64,000 nucleotides of DNA from an uncultured virus (IMG/VR IMGVR_UViG_3300047443_000138) (Duplodnaviria > Heunggongvirae > Uroviricota > Caudoviricetes), in the IMG/VR virus record IMGVR_UViG_3300047443_000138. One strand, 5' to 3'. The position numbers were made by a program, and so were the translations under genes. Within the stretch, counting starts at the first letter, position 1. Every line of letters begins with the position of its first letter. The notes below the pieces were generated by a model. It worked only from the letters and a program-made list of their open reading frames with translations, was not told the origin of the DNA and made no database searches. Below, piece by piece: positions 3,013 to 60,137 of this stretch.

Positions 3013-3474
3013 ATGACCACTGTAGTCCCCGAACAGGAAGTCGCGTCCGTGACGGACGCCACCACGTCCCGCACGTGGTCGTTCATCAATCGCCGCACCG
3101 GCGAGCCCGTGGCCTACGCCTGTATGCAGGGCTGCACGCTGAATCACGCGTCGGAGATGGCCTCGCCGACGTTCCCGGAGGACGTCTGGTGCTGGACGTG
3201 GCCGGAGGCGTTGACGCTGCCGGTCAACGAGAACGGTTCGCCTGAGGAGTTCCGCGTCCTCTCCACGGTGATCAAGGTGGAGCCGTGGTCTCCGAAGGTC
3301 GCCGAGCGGCTGCCGTTCGCCGTAATCGAGCTGGTCGACGATCACTTCGTCGACGGCCTCGACCCGGACGGGCTGGCGACGGTGATCCGCACCCTGTCTG
3401 ACCGGGTGGAGCGGATGCGGGAGACGCATGCCCGGCTCATTGCGGTCCGCGCCGAGTACATGGGCCGCTCGTGA
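3013..3474 (+). CDS. Actinophage hypothetical protein (DUF6907-like)
   Basis: C-x2-GC...H motif and LDPDGLA helix recalled for this family; coupled to the next gene. Confidence 0.55.
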   Translation: MTTVVPEQEVASVTDATTSRTWSFINRRTGEPVAYACMQGCTLNHASEMASPTFPEDVWCWTWPEALTLPVNENGSPEEFRVLSTVIKVEPWSPKVAERLPFAVIELVDDHFVDGLDPDGLATVIRTLSDRVERMRETHARLIAVRAEYMGRS

Positions 3475-4853
3475 TGGCGGGGTCCACGTTCTCGACGGCT
3501 TTGAAGACGGCGGCCGGCTATATCGACGTGGCGGCGAACGCTCACGGTGAAGAGAAGGCGCATCTCGCTGTCCGCGCGCTGGAGCGTATCCAGCACGACC
3601 GTCCGCGTCTGGTGGAGATTGGGCCGGGCGGCGGGTCCGCGGTCGCGTATCTGGCCTCGCATCTTGCTGCTGGTCGGGGCCGCGACGATGTCCGCCTGAC
3701 GCTGGTGGAGGTGCCGGGGGTGATTTCGGCGTCGCTGGAGCAGGCGATGAAGGACTTCAGCCAGGTCGGTGCTTGTGATCTGGTGTCGGGGTTCGCGCAG
3801 GACGTCGGGACGATCCTCGACGATCCGGTGGATGTGGTGAGCGCGTCGGCGCTGCTGCACGAGGTGTATTCCTACGGCGGCGGCTACAGCGGCCTGCATT
3901 CGATGATCCGGACTCTGCCGACGGTGCTGCGGCCGGGCGGAATGTTCGCCTACCGGGACGTGTACGCGGTGAAGGCGCCGTCGCTGCACGACCGGTGCAT
4001 GCAGACGTACACGTCCCGTTCGTGGCTGCGCTTTCTGCGGATGTTCATTCCGCAGTATCTGCAGGAGGGTACGCATCCGTACCACAGTGCCAGTGATCTG
4101 GTGGTTTTCCGGCAGGACTCGAGGGTCGTGCCGGCTGTGGACCTGTGTGAGCGGACGAGCGTGGTGGCTTCGGCGCCGGTGGGGGTGTTCCGGGAGATCC
4201 AGCGGCATTACGTGACGCTGAGGGATCATGTGTGGCGGTCGGGTGTTCTCGGGTTCAGGCCGTTCCTCGAGGGCCCGCTCGCGGGCGACTGGATCGATGC
4301 CCGGCATGGTCACAAGCGCGTGCACTATGTGCTGACGGACTCGGACTGGTTGCCGGATTCTCAGCGGGCGATGCTGCTCGCGCTGAGCGAGCCGTACACC
4401 GACCACTACACCGTGGACGGCGACATCCTCGACGAGTGCACGGACATCGCCCTGGGTGCGTTCTTCCGGCTGGCGGAGCGTGGCGACGGGGAGTGCTCGA
4501 CGGTGTGGCGGAGTTGGGCCTCCCGGGAGGGCCGCGAAACCTACGCGTATCTGACGCTGGATGCACTGCTGGCGGCGGTCGCGGTCAACTCGGCGGAGGT
4601 AGCACAGGATCAGCGGACGGTACTGGTGCCGGTCCGGGTGGAGGACGTGATCCGGCGCGATCGGGCCTACTACGACCGATATCTGCGGCGGGCCATCCCC
4701 AACCCGCTGCGGGACGGAAAACAACTCGTCCTCTTCACGAACGTCCCCGTGGAGGACACTCGCTCGTTGGCCGAGGGGACGCGGACCCTGCAGCAGTGGT
4801 GCAGCAAGACGAGCCTGGCGCGCGTGTACTCGGCGATCAACGGAGGAGCCTGA
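3471..4853 (+). CDS. Class I SAM-dependent methyltransferase with a large unknown C-terminal region
   Basis: Motif I LVEIGPGGG, acidic motif II LTLVE, DVVSASALLHE, LRPGG...RD. Confidence 0.8.
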   Translation: MMAGSTFSTALKTAAGYIDVAANAHGEEKAHLAVRALERIQHDRPRLVEIGPGGGSAVAYLASHLAAGRGRDDVRLTLVEVPGVISASLEQAMKDFSQVGACDLVSGFAQDVGTILDDPVDVVSASALLHEVYSYGGGYSGLHSMIRTLPTVLRPGGMFAYRDVYAVKAPSLHDRCMQTYTSRSWLRFLRMFIPQYLQEGTHPYHSASDLVVFRQDSRVVPAVDLCERTSVVASAPVGVFREIQRHYVTLRDHVWRSGVLGFRPFLEGPLAGDWIDARHGHKRVHYVLTDSDWLPDSQRAMLLALSEPYTDHYTVDGDILDECTDIALGAFFRLAERGDGECSTVWRSWASREGRETYAYLTLDALLAAVAVNSAEVAQDQRTVLVPVRVEDVIRRDRAYYDRYLRRAIPNPLRDGKQLVLFTNVPVEDTRSLAEGTRTLQQWCSKTSLARVYSAINGGA

Positions 4854-4854
4854 G

Positions 4855-5427
4855 ATGAACGACATGATCGAGGTTGAGCGGAAGCGGCGCCTGCCGGACG
4901 ACGGCTCCGGACTGGCCGTGCTGCTGGCCGGGCTCGGCTGGCAGGCTGCGGAGCGGGTGGTCGAGGTGGACACGTACTACTCGCGGCCGGACGTGGACTT
5001 CATGGAGACGGTCGAGTGTCTGCGGGTGCGGCGCCGCGGCGACTTCGCCGAGGTCACCTACAAGCCGGCCTCCACCGTGGCGACCCATAGCGCCGACGGC
5101 GTGATCTCGAAGCCGGAGACGAACGTCATTCTCCAGTCGGCAGGCCAGGCCCCGCTCGCGGACCAGTTGCTTGAGGCGATCGGCATGCAATTGCTCGTGC
5201 GGGTGGAGAAGAACCGAGCTGCGTACCGGCACCCGGACGAGCCGGACGTGACGGTGACCATCGACACGGTCGCCGGTGTCGCCACGTTCGTGGAGACAGA
5301 GGTCATGAGCGCTGACTCGATCGCGGCGGCCGAGACGGTCGAGCGGGTCGAGAAGGAGCTGGACATCACGGACTACCCGACGGTGGAGTTGCCGTACCGG
5401 GATCTCGCGATGGAGCGCGCGGTCTGA
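4855..5427 (+). CDS. CYTH/triphosphate tunnel metalloenzyme (class IV adenylate cyclase-like)
   Basis: EVERK (ExExK), DTYY, LRVR, TYK, VEKNR, FVETE, PY motifs; GGAGG RBS. Confidence 0.9.
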   Translation: MNDMIEVERKRRLPDDGSGLAVLLAGLGWQAAERVVEVDTYYSRPDVDFMETVECLRVRRRGDFAEVTYKPASTVATHSADGVISKPETNVILQSAGQAPLADQLLEAIGMQLLVRVEKNRAAYRHPDEPDVTVTIDTVAGVATFVETEVMSADSIAAAETVERVEKELDITDYPTVELPYRDLAMERAV

Positions 5428-14349: not shown

Positions 14350-14941
14350 AGCGCACATGGGCCCACCCGTGGCCATTGGCGAGTCGGGTGATCAATGTGC
14401 GGCTCACGCCGTACTCGCCAGCGAGGACTCGGTGCAGGTCGCCAGCCGCAGCACGGGCCCGTATCTCCGCGACCTGCGACTCGGTCAACTTGCTCGTCCC
14501 GCTCCGGCTCCCGCGCGCCTGGCGTTCCCGGCTGACCATGTCGGCCGCGTTGTCGGCGTTTGTGCCGACGGAAAGGTGTGCGGGGTTCACGCACGGCGGG
14601 TTGTCGCAAGAGTGCCTGATCAGCATTCCCTCGACGTCTACGCCGGCGAGCATCAGCGACACGCGATGCGCCTTGACCGTGGGCCCCGAGCTCTTGCCCT
14701 CGGGGCGCATCACGCCGTAGCCGTGCTCGTTCGTGGCTTTGGTCCACGGCCAGCAGTCATCGGGGCCTCGGCGGTCGACCTTGTCCCAGAAGCGGTCTGC
14801 GAGCGTCTTCTTCGGCGGGTCGTCAGTGGTGCCAGTGCGCTTCATCCGCTGGTCGTGCGTATCGCACAGACCGTTCCGGCGATGCGGGCGACCGCAGCTC
14901 TCTACGGAGCACGGGCCGCCCGAGCCTCGGACCCCCCTCAC
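14348..14941 (-). CDS. Free-standing HNH homing endonuclease
   Basis: RFWDKV..CWPW...GYG...AHRVS...RHSCDNPPCVNPAHL..GT.ADN; C-terminal SKLTE..V.EIR HTH. Confidence 0.92.
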   Translation of the reverse strand: MRGVRGSGGPCSVESCGRPHRRNGLCDTHDQRMKRTGTTDDPPKKTLADRFWDKVDRRGPDDCWPWTKATNEHGYGVMRPEGKSSGPTVKAHRVSLMLAGVDVEGMLIRHSCDNPPCVNPAHLSVGTNADNAADMVSRERQARGSRSGTSKLTESQVAEIRARAAAGDLHRVLAGEYGVSRTLITRLANGHGWAHVR

Positions 14942-17724
14942 GCCGCCACCGCCAGGTCCGGCTGCGAGTGGCGTTCCATCTCTTCGCCGGTGATTGCTTC
15001 AACGAGCGCACAGACGATGATCTCTGCGGCAGGCGGGGTAACAGCGTTCCCATATTGGCGGACGCGCTCCCGCTTGGACCCGAGGACGATGTACTGGTCG
15101 GCGAAGCTCATGGCCCGGCCGATCTCGTGGGGCTCGAGCATCCGGAACAAGACGTCGTCGATGTCCACGTCGCCCTGGACGAGGGCGTACCGGTCGCGGG
15201 TGGAGAGCGTGCCGACGGGTTCGCGGACCGTCTTCGCCGTCCCGTTGCCGTAGTACGGCACGAGCAGGTGCTCCCACGTCACGAGCGACTGGTGGCCGGC
15301 CGTGGTCATGGTGCGGAAGTACTCGGCAGCGGTCGTGCAGTGCTCTCCGCCGTCGCCGGTGCTTCCGTTGTTCCGCATCACGAACGCCGGGACGTTCGGG
15401 GTGACGAGGCCGTGGTGGTTGCCGTTTGCGGACACGGTGCCGAGCGCCTCGTGGATGGAGCGTCCGCGGAGCTGGTCGCCGCCGCCGCGCATGGTCACCA
15501 TGAACGGAAGCCAGGCGAGCCCGGTCTCGTTCCGTGCGGTCTGGGTGCGGAGCGGGGCGTGCGCGGAGGCGGGTTCCTTGCCGTCGCGTCCTTCGACCGG
15601 GATCAGGAGGGGCGGGACGGCGAGCCCGTCGTTCTCCCTGGTGGTGCGGGTGGCCATGGGGTCGGTGACCGGGGTGGCGTCGTTGCGCCATGTTCCGCCC
15701 GCGGGGACCATCATCGGCCGGGCGAACTTGTCGAGGCCGGCCTGGATGCGGGCGAGGGTTTTGTCGGCGAGCGGCTTCGTCCGGTCCCCGATGCGCTGCC
15801 CGGCGATCGTCCAGTCGATGGCGACGGCGGCGGGCAGTGTCTCGGGTTCGACGATCTGGTTGCGGCAGGCCACGTTCGGGCACCTGTAAACGTATTGCTG
15901 GCGGTAGCGGCCCATGTCGCGTCCGGGCTGCTTGAACCGCTGCACAGCCTGCACCCACGTGTCGCAGCCCGTGCACCAGGCGCGTGGCCGCAACCACTTG
16001 TCCCAGTCCGGCGTCCGGCCCAACGACTTGTGCCAGTACGCCACGTACAGGCGATCCCGGCTCTGCGGCGCCTTGTGTACGGTCCGTGGGTCCGCATGCA
16101 TCGAGTTCAGGGCGATGACGCGGGTCTCGTACCCGAGCTTCCGGATCTCGCCGATCCAGCGGTCCCACTGGTCCCAGGCCCGCACGTCGACGACGTTCTC
16201 GACGACGCCCGCCTTGACGAGGCCGCCCCGCTGCTGAACGCCACGCAGGTACATGGGGACTTCCTCCATCAGCGCGCGGGAGCGTTCGACTTCCTCGGAC
16301 GGGCCGAACCCGTCAAACAGGTCGCCCTGGAGGGAGGCGTCGAAGTCACGCTTCTTGCCGCGGGCGTTGGACCACTGCGGGCATTCCGGGGAGGCCCAGA
16401 AGATGTCGGTGACGGGCCACTTGTCGACGGGCGCTTCGCGGATGTCGCCGCGGTAGTGGTCGACCTCCGGGAAGTTCGCGGCGTGCGACTCGATCGCCCG
16501 CTCCCAGTGATTCGCCGCCCGCTCCATCCGGACGCCGGGGATCGAGTGCATGCCCTGGGAGGAGCCGCCCGCACCGCAGTTCCCCGTCCAGTGCACCAGG
16601 CCGTTGCGACGGCACAGCCAAGTGCCGTGCTCGACGGTGGGGCACCACACGATGCCGCTGTAGGTGGTCCACTCGGCGACCGCCTGGCGGAGCGGCTTGG
16701 CGGTGACCCTCTCCAGGAGCGACACCCGCCACATCGGGTAGGCCGCGCCCTTGTGTTGCATCTCCCACCGGTGGATCGATGTCGCCCGCCCGGCGAGGAT
16801 GGCAGCGAACTGGAATCCTTCGGCCCGGTCCTGCCTGTTTTGCGAGAGGGACGAGTCCCTCGCGCCGTTCCGCACGCGGGTAGTCCCGTCGGCGAGCATC
16901 GACGCTTCCACGAGCAAGTCGAGCTGATCAGCTGTGAGCGTCAGCAGCCAGGCCGGATCCAGGACATGGTCCGGTGCGGCGGCGACGATGGGGGCTGCGG
17001 CTGCGACGTTGAGGCGCCAGTACCTGGTCCCCTCATAGTCGGCGACGTTCCAGGCCGGCTGTCCGGCCCGGCGTCCGGTCCGCCCCATGGGCGACCCGTA
17101 GAGCGCAGTCAGCGCCTGCTCGATCCGCTCGCACTTCCCGGGGTTCACCGACGGCGACTGCGAGAGGTGGATCCCGCCGTTCGCCCGGTAGCTTCCCTCG
17201 GTCCACGCCCATCCGACGAGCTCGACGAGCGCGTCATCGTGGCTGCGGTTCTCCGGGTACGCGAAGGGGGCACTGCGGACGACCGACGAATCCACGGTGA
17301 GCTGGTCGGAAGTACGGATCTGCCAATCGAGCCGACGCCCAGAGGGAGTAGCGACTCGCTGCTGGACTGGCCAGCGGTGGCCGACTGTCACCAGTGCCGA
17401 GAGGGCCTTGCCCTCGACCTTCAGCATCTTCTCGTCGGTCAGGTCGAAGATATTCATCTTCTGGACCGGCACCCAGCGCGCCACTCCGTCGTCTGTGCTG
17501 AGACTGGCGACCAGGTCTCCGACCGCGACCTGGTCGTAGCGCCGCCATCCACGGGCCGTAAGGATCTCGGTCTCCGTGTCCGCGCAGAACCAGTCCATGA
17601 CGGTGAGGTCGCCGTCCGTGGTCCATCCAGCGGCCCGTCGACGGTCTTCGGCTTGCCGAAGGAACTCCTCCGCCTGCCGCGGGGACATGTCGTACAGGTG
17701 GGGCACGTTGCCGTTGCGGTCCAT
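14938..17724 (-). CDS. DNA (cytosine-5) methyltransferase, intein-containing
   Basis: Motif I DWF|CGAGG after intein removal, motif IV SPEC, ENV, QSRDR, GNAV. Confidence 0.92.
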   Translation of the reverse strand: MDRNGNVPHLYDMSPRQAEEFLRQAEDRRRAAGWTTDGDLTVMDWFCADTETEILTARGWRRYDQVAVGDLVASLSTDDGVARWVPVQKMNIFDLTDEKMLKVEGKALSALVTVGHRWPVQQRVATPSGRRLDWQIRTSDQLTVDSSVVRSAPFAYPENRSHDDALVELVGWAWTEGSYRANGGIHLSQSPSVNPGKCERIEQALTALYGSPMGRTGRRAGQPAWNVADYEGTRYWRLNVAAAAPIVAAAPDHVLDPAWLLTLTADQLDLLVEASMLADGTTRVRNGARDSSLSQNRQDRAEGFQFAAILAGRATSIHRWEMQHKGAAYPMWRVSLLERVTAKPLRQAVAEWTTYSGIVWCPTVEHGTWLCRRNGLVHWTGNCGAGGSSQGMHSIPGVRMERAANHWERAIESHAANFPEVDHYRGDIREAPVDKWPVTDIFWASPECPQWSNARGKKRDFDASLQGDLFDGFGPSEEVERSRALMEEVPMYLRGVQQRGGLVKAGVVENVVDVRAWDQWDRWIGEIRKLGYETRVIALNSMHADPRTVHKAPQSRDRLYVAYWHKSLGRTPDWDKWLRPRAWCTGCDTWVQAVQRFKQPGRDMGRYRQQYVYRCPNVACRNQIVEPETLPAAVAIDWTIAGQRIGDRTKPLADKTLARIQAGLDKFARPMMVPAGGTWRNDATPVTDPMATRTTRENDGLAVPPLLIPVEGRDGKEPASAHAPLRTQTARNETGLAWLPFMVTMRGGGDQLRGRSIHEALGTVSANGNHHGLVTPNVPAFVMRNNGSTGDGGEHCTTAAEYFRTMTTAGHQSLVTWEHLLVPYYGNGTAKTVREPVGTLSTRDRYALVQGDVDIDDVLFRMLEPHEIGRAMSFADQYIVLGSKRERVRQYGNAVTPPAAEIIVCALVEAITGEEMERHSQPDLAVAA
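16579..17586 (-). mobile_element. Intein (336 aa) with LAGLIDADG-like core
   Basis: Starts CADTETEILTARGW, block B VTVGHRW, LVGWAWTEG and LADG motifs, ends VWCPTV...WTGN followed by extein Cys. Confidence 0.92.
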
Positions 17725-29706: not shown

Positions 29707-31116
29707 ATGGCGGGCTACATTGAAGATCGCTGGCTGAAGAAGGATGCGAGCGGCAAGCGCACCATCCGTACCGAGCGCTACGGCAAGGGCAAGCGCTACA
29801 AGGTCGCCGGCATCCCCGGGGTTCGAGCCCGCAGCTTCCCTGACAAGCAGAAGGGGGCCGCGGAAGACTGGCTCGCAACCGCTCAGGCCGACGCCATCAA
29901 GGGCGAGTTCGTCGACCCGCGTGACGGCAACATCCTCATGCGCGAGTACGTAGAGAAGCACTGGTGGCCCGCCCGCACCGGAGACCCGGCAACGCTCGAG
30001 ACGGTCAGCCGCAGGGTGCGTAACCAGATCCTGCCGTACCTCGGCAGCGTGTCATTGCGGCAGATCAAGGTCGAGATCCTGAGGAAGTGGCTCAAAGACC
30101 TTGAGGGCGTCATCTCCCCCGGCACCGCGGTGACCGTGTGGGGATACCTCAACAACATCCTCGACTCTGCCGTCGACGACGAACGCATCCGCAAGAACCC
30201 GTGCCGCGCCAAAACCATCAAGGCGCCAACCAAGCCGCCGAACAAGGCCCGCGCCTGGACCCGGGAACGCGTCAGGGCCGTCCAGGCGGACCTGCCGTCG
30301 CACTACCGGATCCTCGTGGACATCGGCGTCGGCGCGGGCCTGCGTCACGGGGAGGTGCTCGGTCTGGCCGTCGACGACATCGACCTGCAAGGCGGCATCA
30401 TTCACGTGAACCGTCAGGTGCGCAGCGTGGGCGGGAAGCTGGTGTTCTCGCTGCCGAAGGGCAACAAGACGCGCACCGTGCCGATCCCCGGCCATCTCGC
30501 GGCCCGCATCAGGGAGCATGTGGCCGCCTACCCGGCGAAGGCCGTGACGCTTCCCTGGAAGGATCCGCGCCCTCCGCAGACCAAGGTGGAGGCGAAGGAG
30601 CGGGCGCCGCAGACCCACCGGCTGCTGGTGTCCAACCGCAATGAGTCCGCGGTGCGGGCGAACATGTGGAACGAGTACTACTGGAAGCGGGCGCTCGCCG
30701 CGGCCGGGATCATTCCTGAGCCGAAGGTGGTTGCGCGGAAGACTGGGCGAGGGAACCGTCTCGTGTACGAGGCGGCGCACGAGTTCGGCTTCCACTGCCT
30801 GCGGCACACGTTCGCCAGTGTGCAGTTGGACGCGCGGGAGAATCCTGTGGCAGTCTCGAAGTGGCTCGGTCACGCAGATGCGTCGATCACGCTGCGGGTC
30901 TACGGACACTTCCTGCCCGACGCGGACGGCCGGGGCCGGCAGGCGATGGATGCCTGGTTCGCAAGTGACTCCGTTTCTTCCTCTCGCTCCCCCAGCGCTC
31001 CCCAGGGGCAAGATCCCGACGCTGGGGAGCCGGATTCCCTCCCCGCCGATGAGCCCGTCGAGGTGGGGTCCAGTGACGGGAATCTGCCGCCTGACCTGCA
31101 AGAAGACGCGGCATAG
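29707..31116 (+). CDS. int: Tyrosine integrase
   Basis: GLRHGE (R), K (PKGNK), HCLRH, LGH, VYGH catalytic set. Confidence 0.97.
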   Translation: MAGYIEDRWLKKDASGKRTIRTERYGKGKRYKVAGIPGVRARSFPDKQKGAAEDWLATAQADAIKGEFVDPRDGNILMREYVEKHWWPARTGDPATLETVSRRVRNQILPYLGSVSLRQIKVEILRKWLKDLEGVISPGTAVTVWGYLNNILDSAVDDERIRKNPCRAKTIKAPTKPPNKARAWTRERVRAVQADLPSHYRILVDIGVGAGLRHGEVLGLAVDDIDLQGGIIHVNRQVRSVGGKLVFSLPKGNKTRTVPIPGHLAARIREHVAAYPAKAVTLPWKDPRPPQTKVEAKERAPQTHRLLVSNRNESAVRANMWNEYYWKRALAAAGIIPEPKVVARKTGRGNRLVYEAAHEFGFHCLRHTFASVQLDARENPVAVSKWLGHADASITLRVYGHFLPDADGRGRQAMDAWFASDSVSSSRSPSAPQGQDPDAGEPDSLPADEPVEVGSSDGNLPPDLQEDAA

Positions 31117-36337: not shown

Positions 36338-36907
36338 TCACGCGCGCTCCAGGTGGCGGTAGATGGTCGGCCGGCTGACGCCGAACTCCTCTGCAATCTG
36401 CTGCACGGTGTACTTGCGCTTGCCGTCGCCGCCAGTCTCGTCGTACATCTGCTGGGCGAGCTTGATCTGACGCTTGCCGAGCTTGGGCTTCTGGCCTCCC
36501 GTTCGGCCGCGCGCTCGCGCCGCTTCAAGGCCGTCCAGGGTTCGGTCCGACATCAGCGCGTGCTCGAACTCGGCGATAGCGCCGATGATCTGGAAGAAGA
36601 GGCGGCCGGCCGGAGTCGCCGTGTCGATGCCCTGATCGAGGACAACGAGGCCGATCCCGCGCGAGCGGAGTTCTTCGGACAGTTCGATGAGGTTCTTCAG
36701 GGAGCGGCCGAGCCGGTCGAGTTTGGTGATGACGAGTTGATCGCCTTCGCGGGCGACCATGAGGGCCTTGTCGAGTTCGGGGCGCCGGGCGAGCTTGCCG
36801 GACGCCTTGTCGGTGAAGACGCGTTCGCAGCCAGCTGCGATGAGTGCGTCCTGCTGGGCTTCGGGGTTTTGGTCTCGGGTCGAGACTCGTGCTACGCCGA
36901 TCCTCAT
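36338..36907 (-). CDS. Serine resolvase/invertase
   Basis: ARVST..Q, SG...RPEL, KLDRLGRS, FE, GR.GG, C-terminal HTH GVSRPTIYRHL. Confidence 0.95.
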   Translation of the reverse strand: MRIGVARVSTRDQNPEAQQDALIAAGCERVFTDKASGKLARRPELDKALMVAREGDQLVITKLDRLGRSLKNLIELSEELRSRGIGLVVLDQGIDTATPAGRLFFQIIGAIAEFEHALMSDRTLDGLEAARARGRTGGQKPKLGKRQIKLAQQMYDETGGDGKRKYTVQQIAEEFGVSRPTIYRHLERA

Positions 36908-53714: not shown

Positions 53715-55085
53715 TCAGCTGGACAGAGTGGTGGTGACGCGGGACAGCCGGCCGAGGAACTTCGGCGCGCGCACCGCAAGGCAGGTGTCCGACGCGATGG
53801 CAAACGGCAGCTGGTCGGGACCCGCGGTCGTGGGGTAGACATCCAAGGGCTGGAGCTCCCGAACATACGGCCGCACCACGAAGTTCTGGTCGCGGGCCAT
53901 CAGGTAGATGTTCTCCTGGCCCGTGGCCTGCGGCTTGACCGAGGCGTTGGTGCCGACGTAGGCCGCCGGGCCCTGCGCCGGGACGGTCGCACCGTTCTTC
54001 GGGGTGAGCTTGGCGCCGTCGTCGACGATGCTCGTGGTCAGGACCGGGGTGACGCCGTCTGCGGCGAGGCCGACCGTGGCGTCGACGTAGCCCAGCAGCG
54101 TCTCGGTGCCGGTCGCGGTGCTGCGGTACACCTTGTACAGGTTCGGCTGGGAGCCGTCGAGACCGGCCGGGGTGGAGAACGACAGAGTGACCGTCGACGT
54201 CGAGCCGGTGGTGACCTGGGAGACCTCGGTCGAAGGCAGCACCTCGCCCTGGCGGGCGATGACCGGGACGATCTGGTAGTAGTACGTCTGCGCGGCCAGG
54301 GTGCCGCCTGTGGTGGCGGTCGCCGTGGTGACGGTTCCCATGCCGAACGCGCGAGCCGACAGGAACGACGACTTGATGATCGGGACGTCCCGGTAGGTGG
54401 GGACGTTGAGGCCGCCCGCGACCTGGACCTTGTCGGAGAACCGCTGCTGCGCCTGCAGGAGCTGCGCGACCTTGGAGGCGGCGGTGGGGCTCATGACGAG
54501 CATCCACTGCTGGTCGTAGACGCCCATGGCGGACTGCTGCTCGACCATGTCGATGAGCTTGTCGAGGGCGCCGAGCGACATGGCGGCGTTGAAGTCGATC
54601 GCGTTCTGGCTGGTGCCGGAGAACGTCGACGCGAGGGAGTCGAGGCCGTCGAACTGCGGGTAGGCGCCCAGCGAGGTGGATGCGCTGTTTCCCCACAGGA
54701 TGGCGTTCTCGATGTCCCAGTACAGGCCCTGGATCGCGCCCTCGACTTCCTGTGCCTTCAGGTCGCCGATGAGGCCCTTGGTGACGGCCTGGGAGTAGCC
54801 GGTGACGGCGCCGACGGCCTGCATCTGCCGGATCGTGTACTGGTTCTGCACGTAGGTGCTGTTGGTGACGGCTCGGGCGCCGCCGTCGGTGACGAAGCCG
54901 CCGGAGGCCCTCGCCGTGCGCTGGTTGAAGTAGTAGACCGTCGAGTCCCACTTGCGGGTGGGGATGGCCCGCACGAGGGGGGCGTAGCGCCGCTGGTACT
55001 CCAGCAGCATCGGGTCGACGATCGTGGGGACGAGCGGGGCGGCACCGGATGCGGTCAGGGCCTCGCGGAGCTCGTTGGTGGTCAT
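53715..55085 (-). CDS. Major capsid protein (HK97-fold, SU10-like) with an inserted FN3/Ig-like domain
   Basis: G.VTG, IE.AILWG, QFDGL, YRDVPII.S, LAVRAPK; internal TYYYQI...LYKVYRS segment. Confidence 0.85.
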   Translation of the reverse strand: MTTNELREALTASGAAPLVPTIVDPMLLEYQRRYAPLVRAIPTRKWDSTVYYFNQRTARASGGFVTDGGARAVTNSTYVQNQYTIRQMQAVGAVTGYSQAVTKGLIGDLKAQEVEGAIQGLYWDIENAILWGNSASTSLGAYPQFDGLDSLASTFSGTSQNAIDFNAAMSLGALDKLIDMVEQQSAMGVYDQQWMLVMSPTAASKVAQLLQAQQRFSDKVQVAGGLNVPTYRDVPIIKSSFLSARAFGMGTVTTATATTGGTLAAQTYYYQIVPVIARQGEVLPSTEVSQVTTGSTSTVTLSFSTPAGLDGSQPNLYKVYRSTATGTETLLGYVDATVGLAADGVTPVLTTSIVDDGAKLTPKNGATVPAQGPAAYVGTNASVKPQATGQENIYLMARDQNFVVRPYVRELQPLDVYPTTAGPDQLPFAIASDTCLAVRAPKFLGRLSRVTTTLSS

Positions 55086-55226: not shown

Positions 55227-56981
55227 TTACTCGGCTTCGCCGCGGACCTTGAATACCGCGCCGGTGACGATCGGCGCGATGTGCTGGCGCCATTCGTCCT
55301 GCGTGTACTCGTGAAGCGGCTTCGCGGGGGCGCCTTCCGGCAGGCCCGGAGTGGCCGGCGCGGTGCCGTCGGTCTCGGTGACGCTGGCGACGAGGCCCTT
55401 GCGGGACGGGCCGCCGGTCGTCTCGACGTGCTCCTGGATCGCCTTCGGCAGTGCGGCGGCGACGCCTTCGGAGACGAGGCGGGCGATGCGCTGGTCCTCG
55501 GTCTCGGCGACCTCGGGGGCGGCCGGGGCGGCTTCGGCGACAGTCTCGGCCGGGGCGGACTCGGCCGCCGCAGGCTTCGGGGTCATCGCGGTGACGAACC
55601 CGGCGAGCGCATCGCTGAGCTTGTCGATCTTCTGGCCGAGGGCGTTGATGCCGTCGGTGCTTCCCGGGGTCTCGGCCGCCGGGGTGGTGGTGGACTCCGC
55701 CATGGCGGGCTCCGTTTCCTGGGTGGGGACGGCGGCCGGTGTCTCCGGCGCCGGGATCTGGGGGGCGGTCTCCATCGCGTCGTCGTCCTCGTCGTCGACC
55801 GTCTTACAGTGCATGCAGGACTCGCACTCGCACGGGCAGTTGCCGGGGGTCTCGGGGATGGCGCATCCGCAGCCGCACGGGCAGGTGGTGCCCGAGGCGG
55901 TCGCCGGTTCACCGTCGTCGTTCGGCTCGCCAGGGACGTCGACGTCGGCGTCCATGTCCGGGTCGAGGTTCGCCAGGGCGTGACAGGCGCCGTCCATGGC
56001 CGCGCGGCCGACGGCGTCGAGGTCGTGCGGGTCGAGGCTGTACGAGGTCACCGTCACGGTCGTCGGGCCGTTGGTAAGGGAGACGTAGAGGTTCCCGGCG
56101 TCCGCCGAGTCCATGCCCCAGCACTCGGCGAGCGCCTCAGTGACCGAGGCGGCCGGGTCGATGAGCCAGCCCTCAGCGGTCGCGACGGTCACGCCGAAGC
56201 CCTTCAGGGCCTTGGTGATCCGCTGCTTGATCCGCTTCAGCTGCGCGGACGTGTACAGGCGGGCGTTGTCAGCCTGGTTCACGTATGACCAGGCGCTTTT
56301 GGCGTGTTGCTTGGAATCGAGGGGGTACCGCTTCTTCTTGTCCTTCTGATACCCGGGATCGCCGTATGTGACGTCGCCGTAGGGCTTGGTGGAGTCGCCG
56401 CCCTTCGCGTCGGCCTCCGTGACGGTCGCTGTCACCAGCGCCTCCTGCACTGACTCGGTGATGAGCACCCGACCATCGGATGCAGACTCCGCCGGCGCCG
56501 TGCCCGCGGGGGTGAAGCTGTCGACGCGCGCGCCGACGACACCGGGCTTGCGCGTGAAGTCGAGGCCGTCGAGTTCGAGGTCGTCGGCCGTTTCGACGGG
56601 CGTGCCGTCGGGGCCCGGCTGACGCCGAACCTTGCCGACCCAGGCCCCGCGGATGGAGACGCCCTTGAGGAAAGCGGGGCCCTTGCGGGTGTCGACGAGG
56701 GACGCGATGTTGCGGGCCTCGTCGGTGTCGGCGAGGTCCGCGGTGTAGGCGGCGCTGCCGTCTTCGAGCTGGTTGATGCCGGTGAGCCGGCCGACGATCT
56801 GGGTGGAGTCGTCGTCTGCGGCGTGATGCGTCAGCATCGTCAGAGGCGCACCGTCCTCGTCGATGCGCTGCTGGGCTCGCTTCACCGCACGACCGATGGT
56901 TTCGGCGGTGTAGAGGCGGCCGTTGCGGGAGACGCCCGGGATGAGGGCGATGCCAGTGATGGTGCCAATGCGGGCGGCCAC
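55227..56981 (-). CDS. Prohead protease-scaffold fusion with a DUF6582-like domain
   Basis: SRNGRLY, H, GVSIRG, DF..KPG protease motifs; KRYPLD...AWSY...I..AL..FGV; acidic scaffold tail. Confidence 0.8.
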   Translation of the reverse strand: MAARIGTITGIALIPGVSRNGRLYTAETIGRAVKRAQQRIDEDGAPLTMLTHHAADDDSTQIVGRLTGINQLEDGSAAYTADLADTDEARNIASLVDTRKGPAFLKGVSIRGAWVGKVRRQPGPDGTPVETADDLELDGLDFTRKPGVVGARVDSFTPAGTAPAESASDGRVLITESVQEALVTATVTEADAKGGDSTKPYGDVTYGDPGYQKDKKKRYPLDSKQHAKSAWSYVNQADNARLYTSAQLKRIKQRITKALKGFGVTVATAEGWLIDPAASVTEALAECWGMDSADAGNLYVSLTNGPTTVTVTSYSLDPHDLDAVGRAAMDGACHALANLDPDMDADVDVPGEPNDDGEPATASGTTCPCGCGCAIPETPGNCPCECESCMHCKTVDDEDDDAMETAPQIPAPETPAAVPTQETEPAMAESTTTPAAETPGSTDGINALGQKIDKLSDALAGFVTAMTPKPAAAESAPAETVAEAAPAAPEVAETEDQRIARLVSEGVAAALPKAIQEHVETTGGPSRKGLVASVTETDGTAPATPGLPEGAPAKPLHEYTQDEWRQHIAPIVTGAVFKVRGEAE

Positions 56982-57000: not shown

Positions 57001-58461
57001 TCAGGCGAACCAGGCGGCGAAGTGGGCCAGCGAGACGTCTGCGGCGTAGCAGCAGCGGCAGACGGGGTGGAGGGGCATTCGGGGCGCGTCGAGAATGTTC
57101 CACGGGCTTCCGGCCTCGGCGTCGATGCATGCAGGACAGACCCTGCCGTCGCCAGCCGAAATGATGTCGATCTTGAGGACGCCTTCGGAGCGGTAGAGGC
57201 TGAGGGCGCCTTCGTCGGCGGCGATGGTCATGGCCCAGTCGACGACGAACGCGACCGCGTCGACGTCGCTGCCGGTGAGGACGTCCATAGCCGCGTCGAT
57301 CATTTCGTCGCGGGTGGCGCCGTCTTCTGCGCCGTTGGCGAGGACTCTGCCGAGGTCTCCGGCCGCCCGGTCGATGGTGCGGCCGAGCCATCCGTCGGCA
57401 TTGCCCCATAGTTCATCGAGGCGTGCCAGCGACTGGTAGGCGTCGTGGAAAGCGATGTTCCAGTCGAGGCCGATCCGGCTGGCACGTTCGGCCGCGATCG
57501 CGACCGCGTTGACCATGCCTTCGGCGCGACCAGCAGCAATGGCGTCACGGATCGCGCCACGTAGGGCGGCCCAGCCTGCCAGGTCGGCGATGGCGTGGAG
57601 CATGGCCTTGGCGGCGGCGAGTGCTTCTGCGCGGATGCTGGACTTGTCGGGGTCCTGCGCTTCGGTGAGCCCGACGCGCTGCCGGAACCGGTCGACCATG
57701 GCGGCAACGGCGTCGCGGTCTATGAGCTGTCGCCATACGTCGGCGACGGCCTGGGTGTGCTTGGCCTGCTGCTCCTCGCGGCGTTGGAAGAGCAGCGCCC
57801 ACATCCCTTCGAGTTTCCCGAGGTCGATGGTGACTTCGAGGATGCGCGGGTCGTCGGCGTGCTCGACTGCGGTCTGGACGGCGGCGACGCTCGCGACCCG
57901 CACCCTCTCCGTCATCGGGCCGCCGGACACCGCCCATCCCGCGGCGAACGCTTCCCGGGCCGTGGCCGCGAGGGGGTGTTCGAGGGGCGTATCGGTGCGG
58001 TCGGTGCCGTGGACGGCTGCCAAGGCGGTGAATTCCACCGGCTGGGCGTCGAGGCGGTCGAGCGGGGAAGGGTCATCGGCTTCGAGGTAGGTAATGGTGA
58101 GGTGAGCGGTGTAGCCGTGATCCCGTGGGATCTCGATGCCCCGCTCAGTGAGCGCGTCCAGCGTGTCGCGGCGTAGGTCTTCAAGGTCGGCGGAGTCGAT
58201 GAGGGCGACGATGACGTCCTTGTCGCCCCCGGTGAAACGGGCCAGCCCGGAGAGCTGCGCCTCGATCGGCTTCCTGCCTGCCAGCTCTTCGACAACCTCG
58301 CGGAACTGATCGCCATCGATGTCGGCCGCGTCCCCGAGGTAGGCGACCGTGACGTGCATTTCTTCCGGCGGGAGACCGCCGTCGACCGCGAGCCCCTCGG
58401 CTACATCGGCGGGCGGGTAGAGAGCGATCATGCAGCCGTCGGAGTAGTCCGGAGACGCCAC
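57001..58461 (-). CDS. 2H phosphoesterase fused to a MuF-like minor head protein
   Basis: MHVTVAYLG and YTAHLTITY (two HxT motifs); C-terminal DGRVCPAC...P.HP.CRC. Confidence 0.85.
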   Translation of the reverse strand: MASPDYSDGCMIALYPPADVAEGLAVDGGLPPEEMHVTVAYLGDAADIDGDQFREVVEELAGRKPIEAQLSGLARFTGGDKDVIVALIDSADLEDLRRDTLDALTERGIEIPRDHGYTAHLTITYLEADDPSPLDRLDAQPVEFTALAAVHGTDRTDTPLEHPLAATAREAFAAGWAVSGGPMTERVRVASVAAVQTAVEHADDPRILEVTIDLGKLEGMWALLFQRREEQQAKHTQAVADVWRQLIDRDAVAAMVDRFRQRVGLTEAQDPDKSSIRAEALAAAKAMLHAIADLAGWAALRGAIRDAIAAGRAEGMVNAVAIAAERASRIGLDWNIAFHDAYQSLARLDELWGNADGWLGRTIDRAAGDLGRVLANGAEDGATRDEMIDAAMDVLTGSDVDAVAFVVDWAMTIAADEGALSLYRSEGVLKIDIISAGDGRVCPACIDAEAGSPWNILDAPRMPLHPVCRCCYAADVSLAHFAAWFA

Positions 58462-58477: not shown

Positions 58478-58585
58478 TCAGCCGATCCGCTTCTTGATGA
58501 GCGCCGCCACGTCTTTCGCCCGCAGTGGATGGTTCGGAGGATCCGGCAGGGGCCACAGCGGGCCCGGGTCAGGCGGCACGCTCAT
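58478..58585 (-). CDS. 35-aa ORF between portal and MuF
   Basis: GGGAGGT RBS, MSVPPDPGPLWPLPDPPNHPLRAKDVAALIKKRIG; fills the gap; not in the ORF track. Confidence 0.55.
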   Translation of the reverse strand: MSVPPDPGPLWPLPDPPNHPLRAKDVAALIKKRIG

Positions 58586-60137
58586 CGATACCTCCCGGCA
58601 GTCGGGCTAGGGCCTCCCGCAACCGCCGCTTGTATGCAGCTTGCAGGGACTCGACGGGCGGCGGTTCCTTTTCCGGATCCGCAGGCTCGGGCGGCTCCCC
58701 TGGGGGCGCCTTGCCCGCGAATGCCGCGAGCTGGGGTGGCACCGGTGCCGGTTCGGGTTTCTCCACGGTGACCGGTTCGCCGTGAGCCGGGTCGCCGGGC
58801 TCCAGGGCGGTCCCCTTGAGCTTGTTCGCGATGCCGGCCTTGGATGCGGCGTCCATGTCGGCCCATTTGACGAGGTTCTCGCGGTCGACGAGTACGGCTT
58901 GGTCGCCGCCGTCGACGGGGGGTTCGCCGATGTCGGCGCGGTAGCGGTCGAGGGTCCAGGAGCCGTTGCGGAGCCGCATGTCGCGGATCTTCTCGACGGT
59001 TTCGCTGTCGCGCATGTCGATGTCGCGGAACTTCAGCTTCCAGCCCTCGACGTCGAAGCCCAGCTTCGCGAGGTGGAAGTTGAGGGCTTCCAGGACGAGT
59101 TCAGCGATGGGCTGACACGTATTGATCATGAAGGTGCGGTCCTGGGCTTCCCCCGTACCGCCCCCCAGGTTCCCGGACTCGATGATGCCGACCTTCGCGG
59201 GCGGCACCCCATACGAGGCGATGATCTCGTCCCGCTTCTGATCCAAGTATTTCAGGTAGTCCATCGTCCGGGACTGCGCCAGCTCCTGAATCTGCGCGCC
59301 GCCCTTGGTGGAGATCGGCGTCCCGATGTTGCGGGGCCCGATGTTCCGCTGCTGGTACTGCGCATTCCACCGGTTGATGTCCGCCGTCGAGTTGGAGGCC
59401 GGGAAGTCGACGTGGATCTGCGGGGGCGCACCCTTGCGGAAAATCTCTTTGCTCGTGGCTGCGGCGAACAGCCACGCGGTGATCGGGAGCATCGCGGCCT
59501 GCGTCGGCGACACCCCGAACACGCTCGAACGGGGCGCGTCCAGCGAGATGTGGATGACCTCGCGCGGCTCGAACGTTGCCCGCTGCCCCGCATCCGTGAT
59601 CTGCACGTAGCTGGTCACGTTGCCGTGCTCGTCCGTGATCGGCAGCATGCTCGGGCAGTCCAGCGTGTACAACGCGACCGGCTGCTGGCCCAGCCACACG
59701 ACCTCGACGAACGCGTCACCGAAGACGAGGAGGTCGATGATGACGCCGCGGAGGATCTGCCGGATGTTCTCCCGCGGATTGCAGTAGCCGATCATCCGCT
59801 CGAGGAGCAGCACCTGCTCGGGCTTGTCAGGCTCCTGCTCGCTACCCTGCCCGTCGTCGGAGTCCCAGTCGGTGACCAGCCCGCCCGCGGTGATGGTGCG
59901 GGCAATGGCGTTGATGCTGGCCCACGCCCACGGGCAGGAGAGGTACGCCTCGTACAGGGACTGCAGCATGGAGCGGCGGTCCGTCTGGGTGGCGCCGCCG
60001 AGGCCCTGGTTGGACTCGGTGAGTCCGCCGGGGCCGATGCCGTAGACGTAGCCTTCCCGCTCCGGGAGCTTCGCCGGGGCAGTCTCCAGCACTTCAGCGC
60101 TGCCGGTCAGGCCCTGCCACCAGGTGCGTAGGCTCAC
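58569..60137 (-). CDS. Portal protein
   Basis: DLLVFGDAF, EVIHI, GVSP, YGVPP..G, T.D.YR..IG.PP..GGD. Confidence 0.93.
   Translation of the reverse strand: MSLRTWWQGLTGSAEVLETAPAKLPEREGYVYGIGPGGLTESNQGLGGATQTDRRSMLQSLYEAYLSCPWAWASINAIARTITAGGLVTDWDSDDGQGSEQEPDKPEQVLLLERMIGYCNPRENIRQILRGVIIDLLVFGDAFVEVVWLGQQPVALYTLDCPSMLPITDEHGNVTSYVQITDAGQRATFEPREVIHISLDAPRSSVFGVSPTQAAMLPITAWLFAAATSKEIFRKGAPPQIHVDFPASNSTADINRWNAQYQQRNIGPRNIGTPISTKGGAQIQELAQSRTMDYLKYLDQKRDEIIASYGVPPAKVGIIESGNLGGGTGEAQDRTFMINTCQPIAELVLEALNFHLAKLGFDVEGWKLKFRDIDMRDSETVEKIRDMRLRNGSWTLDRYRADIGEPPVDGGDQAVLVDRENLVKWADMDAASKAGIANKLKGTALEPGDPAHGEPVTVEKPEPAPVPPQLAAFAGKAPPGEPPEPADPEKEPPPVESLQAAYKRRLREALARLPGGIDERAA

Follow-up and report, generated by a model that had tools for sequence, protein, structure and literature searches.

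A predicted 2H phosphoesterase as optional N-terminal cargo of a MuF-like minor head protein, with a candidate protease site at the junction

The head module of this temperate phage raises the question of what a 2H phosphoesterase domain does at the N-terminus of a MuF-like minor head protein: whether it is a working enzyme, whether it travels in the virion and is released from its carrier, and what it cleaves. The window, the stretch of 64,000 nucleotides analyzed here, carries a siphovirus-type late operon in the order terminase, portal, fusion gene, protease-scaffold, major capsid, adaptor, tube, and tape measure (Table 1), along with the tyrosine integrase (29707-31116), RecT, YqaJ, and DnaB of a temperate phage. 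Named homologs of the fusion protein come from Streptomyces and close genera, and the host is a Streptomyces-like bacterium. The placement of the fusion gene between portal and protease, reported in a preliminary description of this DNA, is correct. The gene starts with GTG, has AGGAGG 5 nt upstream, and is followed 20 nt past its stop by the protease gene. An assembly or gene-calling artefact is ruled out by 97 further full-length homologs among the best 120 matches, and read-through from the portal is ruled out by the 35-aa ORF and the fusion lying in different frames.

Table 1. Features of the fusion locus, in window positions. The arrow (↓) marks a predicted cut.
Feature	Position	Strand	Remarks
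2H phosphoesterase-MuF fusion gene	57001..58461	(-)	486 aa, 52 kDa
2H phosphoesterase domain (predicted), aa 8-161	57979..58440	(-)	PF13563, fold, hhalign to T4 Acb1
Catalytic motif 1, H36-x-T38	58348..58356	(-)	
Catalytic motif 2, H120-x-T122	58096..58104	(-)	
Divergent MuF/gp7-like minor head protein, aa 163-486	57004..57975	(-)	
MuF motif C-x2-C...H-P-x-C-R-C, aa 442-470	57052..57138	(-)	
Predicted protease site A-R-E170↓A, 2H-MuF junction	57949..57960	(-)	cut would free 18.2 kDa 2H piece
E267, flexible MuF loop, second predicted protease site	57661..57663	(-)	pLDDT dip 261-270
Portal protein	58569-60137	(-)	PF04860 E 9e-31; conserved E↓[AST] motifs near both ends
Short conserved 35-aa ORF, portal/fusion gene interval	58478..58585	(-)	
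Head maturation protease + DUF6582 + E[AST]-rich scaffold	55227..56981	(-)	phrog_207 E 1.5e-5
Major capsid protein	53715..55085	(-)	phrog_752; likely true start 55085

The N-terminal part contains two intact HxT motifs, as had been claimed, and is confirmed by modeling to have a predicted 2H fold. Conservation was counted in 98 full-length homologs (from the best 120 of 246 matches). In motif 1, H36 is present in 98/98 and T38 in 97/98; in motif 2, H120 and T/S122 are each present in 96/98. A tyrosine occurs three residues past each HxT (97/98 and, for Tyr125, 95/98), giving the pattern HxTxxY twice. PF13563 matches amino acids 29-133 above its cut-off (E 1e-11), and LigT_PEase is also above cut-off. 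An AlphaFold2 model of the fusion built from 98 sequences (pLDDT 90) was compared with solved folds (VIA), the Deinococcus CPDase 5h7f scoring Z 17.4 (rmsd 3.2, 158 aligned), LigT 14.7, the phage BCSR5 PDE 11.4, and Acb1 10.7; LigT/CPDase scores span Z 17.4-14.2. Foldseek agrees, and the best structural matches overall are CPDases/LigT and Usb1; the best 20 fold rows are all 2H-type entries or look so by title. A solved-structure sequence search with the fusion gave weak matches only (best E 0.085).

The 2H domain is an optional part of this protein family. The homolog search yielded 246 matches among 8000 scored candidates, the best 120 of which comprise the query itself, 97 full-length fusions, 21 MuF-only proteins (304-336 aa), and one shortened fusion. 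One short MuF form keeps its first five residues and then resumes just past the 2H domain, a clean excision, and at three of nine loci fetched (L015, L018, and L020) the portal directly precedes MuF and a 2H is lacking across about 20 kb. Carrier prophages of the fusion include those of Streptomyces aureus NRRL B-1941 (L016) and S. xanthochromogenes JCM 4612 (L013). In a tree built from 129 MuF parts, 2H is gained or lost 23 times, and strong branches force at least 15 of these changes; the total is near the shuffled-label value of 25.7, and a miscalled start could account for some of the MuF-only proteins seen without context. A wider set of 151 rows, made up of 149 distant representatives, P0085, and the query, contains 40 with an N-terminal 2H domain, one with a C-terminal 2H domain, and 110 with none, while other rows of the MuF subfamily bear ART, kinase-like, or NUDIX domains or inteins (55 longer or split-match rows scanned). 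Both HxT/S motifs are intact in 49 of 53 fusions under 60% identity, and the second Thr/Ser is gone from the other four. Median dN/dS is 0.26 for 2H and 0.30 for MuF (120 pairs, 16 loci), a rough estimate for GC-rich DNA. To judge from these sequences, the 2H module is under purifying selection and is a working, dispensable cargo. Its repeated absence, with the portal directly before MuF at some loci, makes it accessory in the manner of counter-defence genes.

The carrier of this cargo ends in a MuF-type Cys/His motif, as the preliminary description had it, with C442, C445, H465, C468, and C470 retained in 98/98 full-length homologs. The wider identification of the C-terminal part as MuF stands on this motif, on homology, and on the portal neighbor, but falls short of curated cut-offs. 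TIGR01641 matches amino acids 372-473 over profile positions 3-106 of 109 with E 3.3e-5 and 24.2 bits, below the cut-off of 39.65; of 41 aligned members, 38 match it at E 10 or lower. PF04233 does not match the query; it matched 4 of 22 MuF-part sequences, the best relative reaching 29.0 against a cut-off of 29.6. BFVD models named 'minor capsid protein' match the MuF part (E 4e-6 to 2e-4). ESM Atlas gave matches that were all under 0.9, one set of which bears PF04233 and provides a lead, and a whole-protein search gave no solved fold distinctive for the MuF part (best Z 6.6).

Proteins of the MuF/gp7 kind bind portal and DNA and occur at 1-3 copies in the head. SPP1 gp7 is reported to bind the portal and to be present at about 1-2 copies per capsid (PMC5576092). 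Like SPP1 gp7 and the MuF polymorphic toxins, the fusion is encoded by a muf gene that belongs to a temperate phage's head module (PMC5576092; PMC12226406). MuF proteins with C-terminal toxins have been described (PMC7302621, PMC12226406); these combine a C-terminal toxin with an immunity ORF, whereas the cargo here is N-terminal and not a known toxin. The protein stops 16 aa past the Cys motif with no C-terminal toxin domain, and the protease gene comes next with no immunity ORF. Other members of this MuF subfamily carry C-terminal ART or kinase-like domains.

The MuF subfamily shows further variation. Other N-terminal cargo occurs on the same MuF in P0169 and P0188, HAD-like (by eye) and DUF1015/ParB-like (weak). 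Giant proteins of >2200 aa start with a 2H-MuF unit (L061:5501-12127 and P0178), one of 3693 aa with NUDIX, ART, GNAT, HeH, and Rho_N. Portal-NUDIX-MuF fusions in Lys-motif phages (P0270, L079-L108) have NUDIX in the slot of 2H. Inteins occupy two positions, on the Cys/His motif or immediately ahead of it (P0122, P0125, P0140, P0141, P0143, P0170, P0174, P0195, and P0196), and their sites suggest an essential conserved function there. No genomic context was found for P0243.

The neighboring protease has, according to its model, a T4 gp21-like (S77) fold. Its amino acids 1-160 match 5jbl (T4 gp21) best (VIA; Z 11.0, rmsd 3.5, 130 aligned), and a herpesvirus protease scores 9.8. The Foldseek match is weak (E 3.6e-3), as is PF03420 (in 5 of 32), and a solved-structure sequence search with the protease gave no relevant match. 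The catalytic pair consists of H53, which is invariant, and S109, which is found in at least 90% of 32 proteases. A DUF6582 domain (amino acids 201-267) lies between protease and scaffold. The proteases of T4, phiKZ, and SPN3US are reported to cut after Glu, that of SPN3US at A-X-E with a preference for Ser at the following position (PMC5694885, PMC10052503). The protease-scaffold contains 22 E[AST] in 584 aa, and the capsid protein has L-x-E↓A a few residues past its start in 31/31 among the MCPs listed. In 37 protease-scaffolds ES is 2.3-fold and ET 1.9-fold above expectation, with ES also 2.1-fold over-represented in the terminase control.

The same motif occurs at the boundary between cargo and carrier. 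E170, at the 2H-MuF junction, is found in 89/98 and E267, in the MuF loop, in 98/98 full-length homologs. In 53 diverse fusions, E[AST] is present in the 21-residue junction in 49 and in the E267 loop in 42, as compared with 6-36% for windows within the 2H domain. When lengths are matched, E[AST] lies within 14 residues of the first MuF helix motif in 45/50 fused versus 20/56 MuF-only proteins, and D and Q controls at the junction have no excess. Loss of E170 is scattered on the tree (15 changes). An alternative upstream site is found in 17/20 rows where E170 is lost versus 6/30 where it is kept (Fisher p 8e-6; 2000 shuffles, mean 8.2, maximum 15; three rows without the helix dropped). In phages with K↓A-start capsid proteins, the E267 loop has [VL]xK↓A in 8/20 rows and Glu there in 0/20. 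Other Streptomyces prophages have 2H flanked by each phage's own repeated motif; by eye, the motif preceding 2H in 18 such proteins is K↓A in 6, AA↓A/S in 9, E↓A in 1, and Arg-rich in 2. Because the protease is gp21-like, E↓[AST] is common to head proteins, and the motif is present at the junction and reappears when the Glu is lost, the phage's own protease probably releases the enzyme at this junction within the prohead.

The lid residue Trp147 of Acb1 has a weak alignment partner in W176, which belongs to the MuF part and lies past the E170 site; standalone 2H relatives end in an invariant Trp, as at the Acb1 lid position. This is a tension for the E170 cut, which would part the aligned lid Trp from the enzyme. 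If W176 is the lid, the working piece may be amino acids 1-267.

Related 2H domains are widespread in head operons. Searched by itself, the 2H part has matches in 329 of 50,697 phage records; actinophages supply nearly all of these, and the genes are annotated as 'RNA ligase', protease, or portal. Within head operons the same 2H clade is fused to portal, protease, or MuF, or forms a separate gene between those for portal and protease. Streptomyces phage Maih gp11 is a 1192-aa MuF-2H-protease protein with an Ala-type motif, annotated 'capsid maturation protease and MuF-like fusion protein'; its 2H domain belongs to the same clade (profile E 6e-18 among six targets), but the domain order differs. 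No cultured phage record covers 80% of the fusion protein. Matches were found in 22 of 401 Streptomyces genomes, 20 of them via the 2H part, and seven ORFs from Streptomyces genomes that were scanned or classed are portal, protease, MuF, or ParB-like fusions. In an unrelated head module, seen at 9 loci (7 viewed, one annotated), a standalone 2H protein of 190-220 aa is flanked by the portal and a ClpP-type protease. In this module (L027-L034 and L076) the N- and C-termini of the 2H protein bear similar W-x-x-L motifs, and that at the C-terminus looks as if derived from the first MuF helix. On the basis of these sequences, hundreds of actinophage genes annotated 'RNA ligase' appear to encode head-linked predicted Acb1-like phosphodiesterases.

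Published virion proteomes bear on the loading of such domains. For purified virions of Gordonia phage GMA2, 18 peptides of orf10 are reported, one of which (amino acids 825-846) spans the second HxT of its 2H domain (PMC4524720). This domain is found by the profile of the fusion family (E 2e-15 among six targets); orf10 has no MuF match. GTE6 orf18 (2H + protease) is absent from the virion table, which gives two or three proteins per phage (PMC4524720). The MuF carrier, the head-operon position of the whole 2H clade, and the one GMA2 2H peptide make virion loading of 2H plausible.

We tentatively favor, with confidence a little short of even, a scheme in which an active Acb1-like 2H enzyme is loaded into the head by its MuF carrier, set free by the protease, and injected into the next cell, where it would degrade immune messengers. 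By analogy to SPP1 gp7, the MuF part would be built into the prohead at low copy, carrying 2H along. During head maturation the putatively Glu-specific gp21-like protease would cut after E170 and nick at E267. The freed 18 kDa enzyme would remain in the head, enter the next host with the DNA, and hydrolyze cyclic or 2'-5' oligonucleotide immune messengers of the CBASS type. Packaging, cutting, retention, ejection, and substrate are all steps that we infer. In T4, internal proteins are reported to be trimmed by gp21, retained inside, and injected (PMC9958956). Together with Alt, they share with the role proposed for 2H that they are non-essential head cargo, gp21-trimmed, and injected against host defence. 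They have a short N-terminal targeting peptide that is discarded, whereas here the carrier is a 320-aa MuF part and the N-terminal piece would be the one released.

Virion delivery of a 2H-head protein fusion is already known as a prediction. Iyer et al. 2017 described 2H domains fused to MuF or portal that may be RNases or degrade immune nucleotides (PMC5512222), and Iyer et al. 2022 predicted that such fusions are packaged and injected (PMC9503650). The 2H domain on a head-packaged carrier and the proposed injection are thus shared. The accessible text of these papers gives no domain order, host, or cleavage site, and a figure or the files may show the same order; in the present fusion an optional 2H domain occupies the N-terminus, and a conserved candidate protease site comes after it. 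The accessible text of Doherty et al. 2025 makes no mention of fusion, capsid, virion, or portal, and 13 multidomain proteins are in its Supplementary Table 2. Our literature search, which covered papers outside subscription, turned up neither a laboratory test of a packaged 2H nor an account of MuF cargo being released by a protease. New here are the candidate protease site at the 2H-MuF junction and the related 2H peptide in a published virion proteome (GMA2). The 2H anti-CBASS enzymes tested in the published work seen are free proteins made during infection. The fusion family provides a clean test system: a single head gene has natural alleles with and without 2H, the release site is predicted, and the relatives Maih and GMA2 are cultured on laboratory hosts. 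Should the release rule hold, sequence could be used to delimit cargo domains in head proteins.

A broader proposal, which we regard as doubtful, is that loading and release of counter-defence enzymes is a general system of actinobacterial phages, with 2H on any head protein, always bracketed by the motif of the phage's own maturation protease (Glu-, Lys-, or Ala-type), cut free in the prohead, and injected to destroy immune second messengers ahead of all phage gene expression. If true, such a system would amount to an anti-CBASS enzyme that is carried by the virion and acts pre-emptively, and the junction motif would be a rule for finding released capsid cargo.

Action before phage gene expression, as suggested in the preliminary description, is weakened by the late timing of both Acb1 activity and CBASS triggering and by the usual exit of cut-off pieces from the head. 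Acb1 activity is reported to start about 15 min into T4 infection (PMC9117128), CBASS activation to be set by late virion assembly (prohead protease and capsid; 10.1101/2023.05.21.541620), and prohead-protease propeptides usually to exit the head. These reports favor a different site of action for the same enzyme and target, the leading alternative, which we nevertheless hold to be unlikely: MuF would place 2H at the CBASS-triggering proheads late in the producing cell, and the protease would release it to the cytoplasm and not into the mature virion. Carrier copies of about 1-2 per capsid mean little enzyme, and a carrier is dispensable where 2H genes stand alone in head operons, both of which also fit late action. 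The related 2H peptide in purified GMA2 virions argues against it, as do the T4 internal proteins, which stay inside after gp21 trimming, and the repeated fusion to portal, MuF, and protease, which timing alone would not need. The injected and late producing-cell modes are compatible with each other.

The substrate may be approached through the relatives of the 2H domain. The preliminary description had named Acb1 and LigT for comparison, and the outcome is divided: the fold is nearer to LigT and the motif pattern is like that of Acb1, but the Acb1 profile is under its cut-off. PF23474 (Acb1) scores 20.1 bits against a cut-off of 27 bits, and TIGR02258 (LigT/ThpR) 34.3 bits (E 2e-8) against an equivalog cut-off of 65.7. 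In hhalign, the 2H family profile aligns with T4 Acb1 over 140 columns (24% identity, E 9e-5, score 33.0) and scores lower with ThpR by a small margin (E 5e-4, score 29.5). E. coli ThpR has the motifs HxTxxF and HxTxxR. The Arg five past the second His, which is catalytic in ThpR, is replaced here by Tyr125 (95/98).

The 2H domain shares with T4/FBB1 Acb1 (PF23474; 7t26/7t27) the predicted fold, HxTxxY twice, and aligned pocket positions. Acb1, which cleaves cyclic di- and trinucleotides, is described as a standalone, late-expressed cytoplasmic enzyme with a C-terminal lid (PMC9117128), whereas the predicted enzyme of the fusion is N-terminal on MuF and has an extra helix. The base-stacking residues of Acb1 are Y12, W74, and F107, and its lid has W147/E141 (PMC9117128); the three stacking residues align to M11 (98/98), F76 (98/98), and H115 (97/98). 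The aligned pocket is therefore conserved but of a different make (M/F/H versus Y/W/F), and the substrate may differ from that of Acb1. Viral 2H groups are reported to differ in substrate, two groups cutting 0/18 messengers (10.1101/2025.08.21.671373).

It is distinctly unlikely, in our estimate, that the substrate is instead RNA, with 2H opening 2',3'-cyclic phosphate ends from host defence RNases as a LigT/ThpR-like enzyme or acting as a Usb1-like RNase. The top structural matches to CPDases/LigT and Usb1, the TIGR02258 match (E 2e-8, below cut-off), and the RNase reading of MuF/portal fusions in Iyer 2017 (PMC5512222) agree with such a role, but Tyr follows both HxT motifs (97 and 95/98) as in Acb1, where ThpR has Phe and Arg, and hhalign favors Acb1 over ThpR (33.0 versus 29.5, a small margin). 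Nor was an RNA ligase (73 window ORFs versus Pfam) or a tRNA seen in the 64-kb window; part of the phage genome lies beyond it, since a contig with the fusion protein reaches 81 kb.

Messengers of the c-di-AMP, c-di-GMP, and 2',3'-cNMP type steer Streptomyces development. Degradation of such housekeeping messengers, shifting host physiology at infection or induction and not immunity, is very unlikely as the role of 2H. Some viral 2H enzymes are reported to cut regulatory nucleotides (10.1101/2025.08.21.671373), and a link to host SMODS genes is missing: SMODS/CD-NTase genes occur in 55/401 Streptomyces genomes versus 2/20 2H-bearing genomes and 0/5 carrier genomes, with no association of 2H-bearing prophages with SMODS, a comparison that is uninformative because the enzyme would act in the next host. 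The frequent loss and swapping of 2H, along with ART, kinase-like, and NUDIX cargo on the same carrier, fit conflict better. A passive role, in which 2H is carried along incidentally or without catalysis and the E↓A motifs belong to helix structure, is highly improbable, the location of E170 in a predicted helix, the second Thr/Ser gone in 4/53 fusions, and E[AST] at the same place in 20/56 MuF-only proteins being set against purifying selection, near-invariant catalytic residues, and a position-shifted motif retained in fusions only, with D and Q controls lacking excess.

The 35-aa ORF between portal and fusion gene is Pro-rich and unannotated, overlaps the portal stop, and ends in a conserved HPLR...KKR; it has no PHROG match. 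A matching frame is present at 23/35 loci (one or two doubtful) and absent from 2/3 loci without 2H. Elsewhere in the window, a CYTH-domain gene (4855-5427, +; PF01928, E 1e-24) beside GntR-UTRA regulators encodes a predicted second nucleotide-acting enzyme of the phage; the 460-aa ORF upstream of it (3471-4853, +) has no Pfam or PHROG match. The window also encodes a 928-aa C5 DNA methylase (14938-17724, -) and, although the phage has a tyrosine integrase, a resolvase beside the lysis module (36338-36907, -). At locus L011, terL contains a large in-frame insert.
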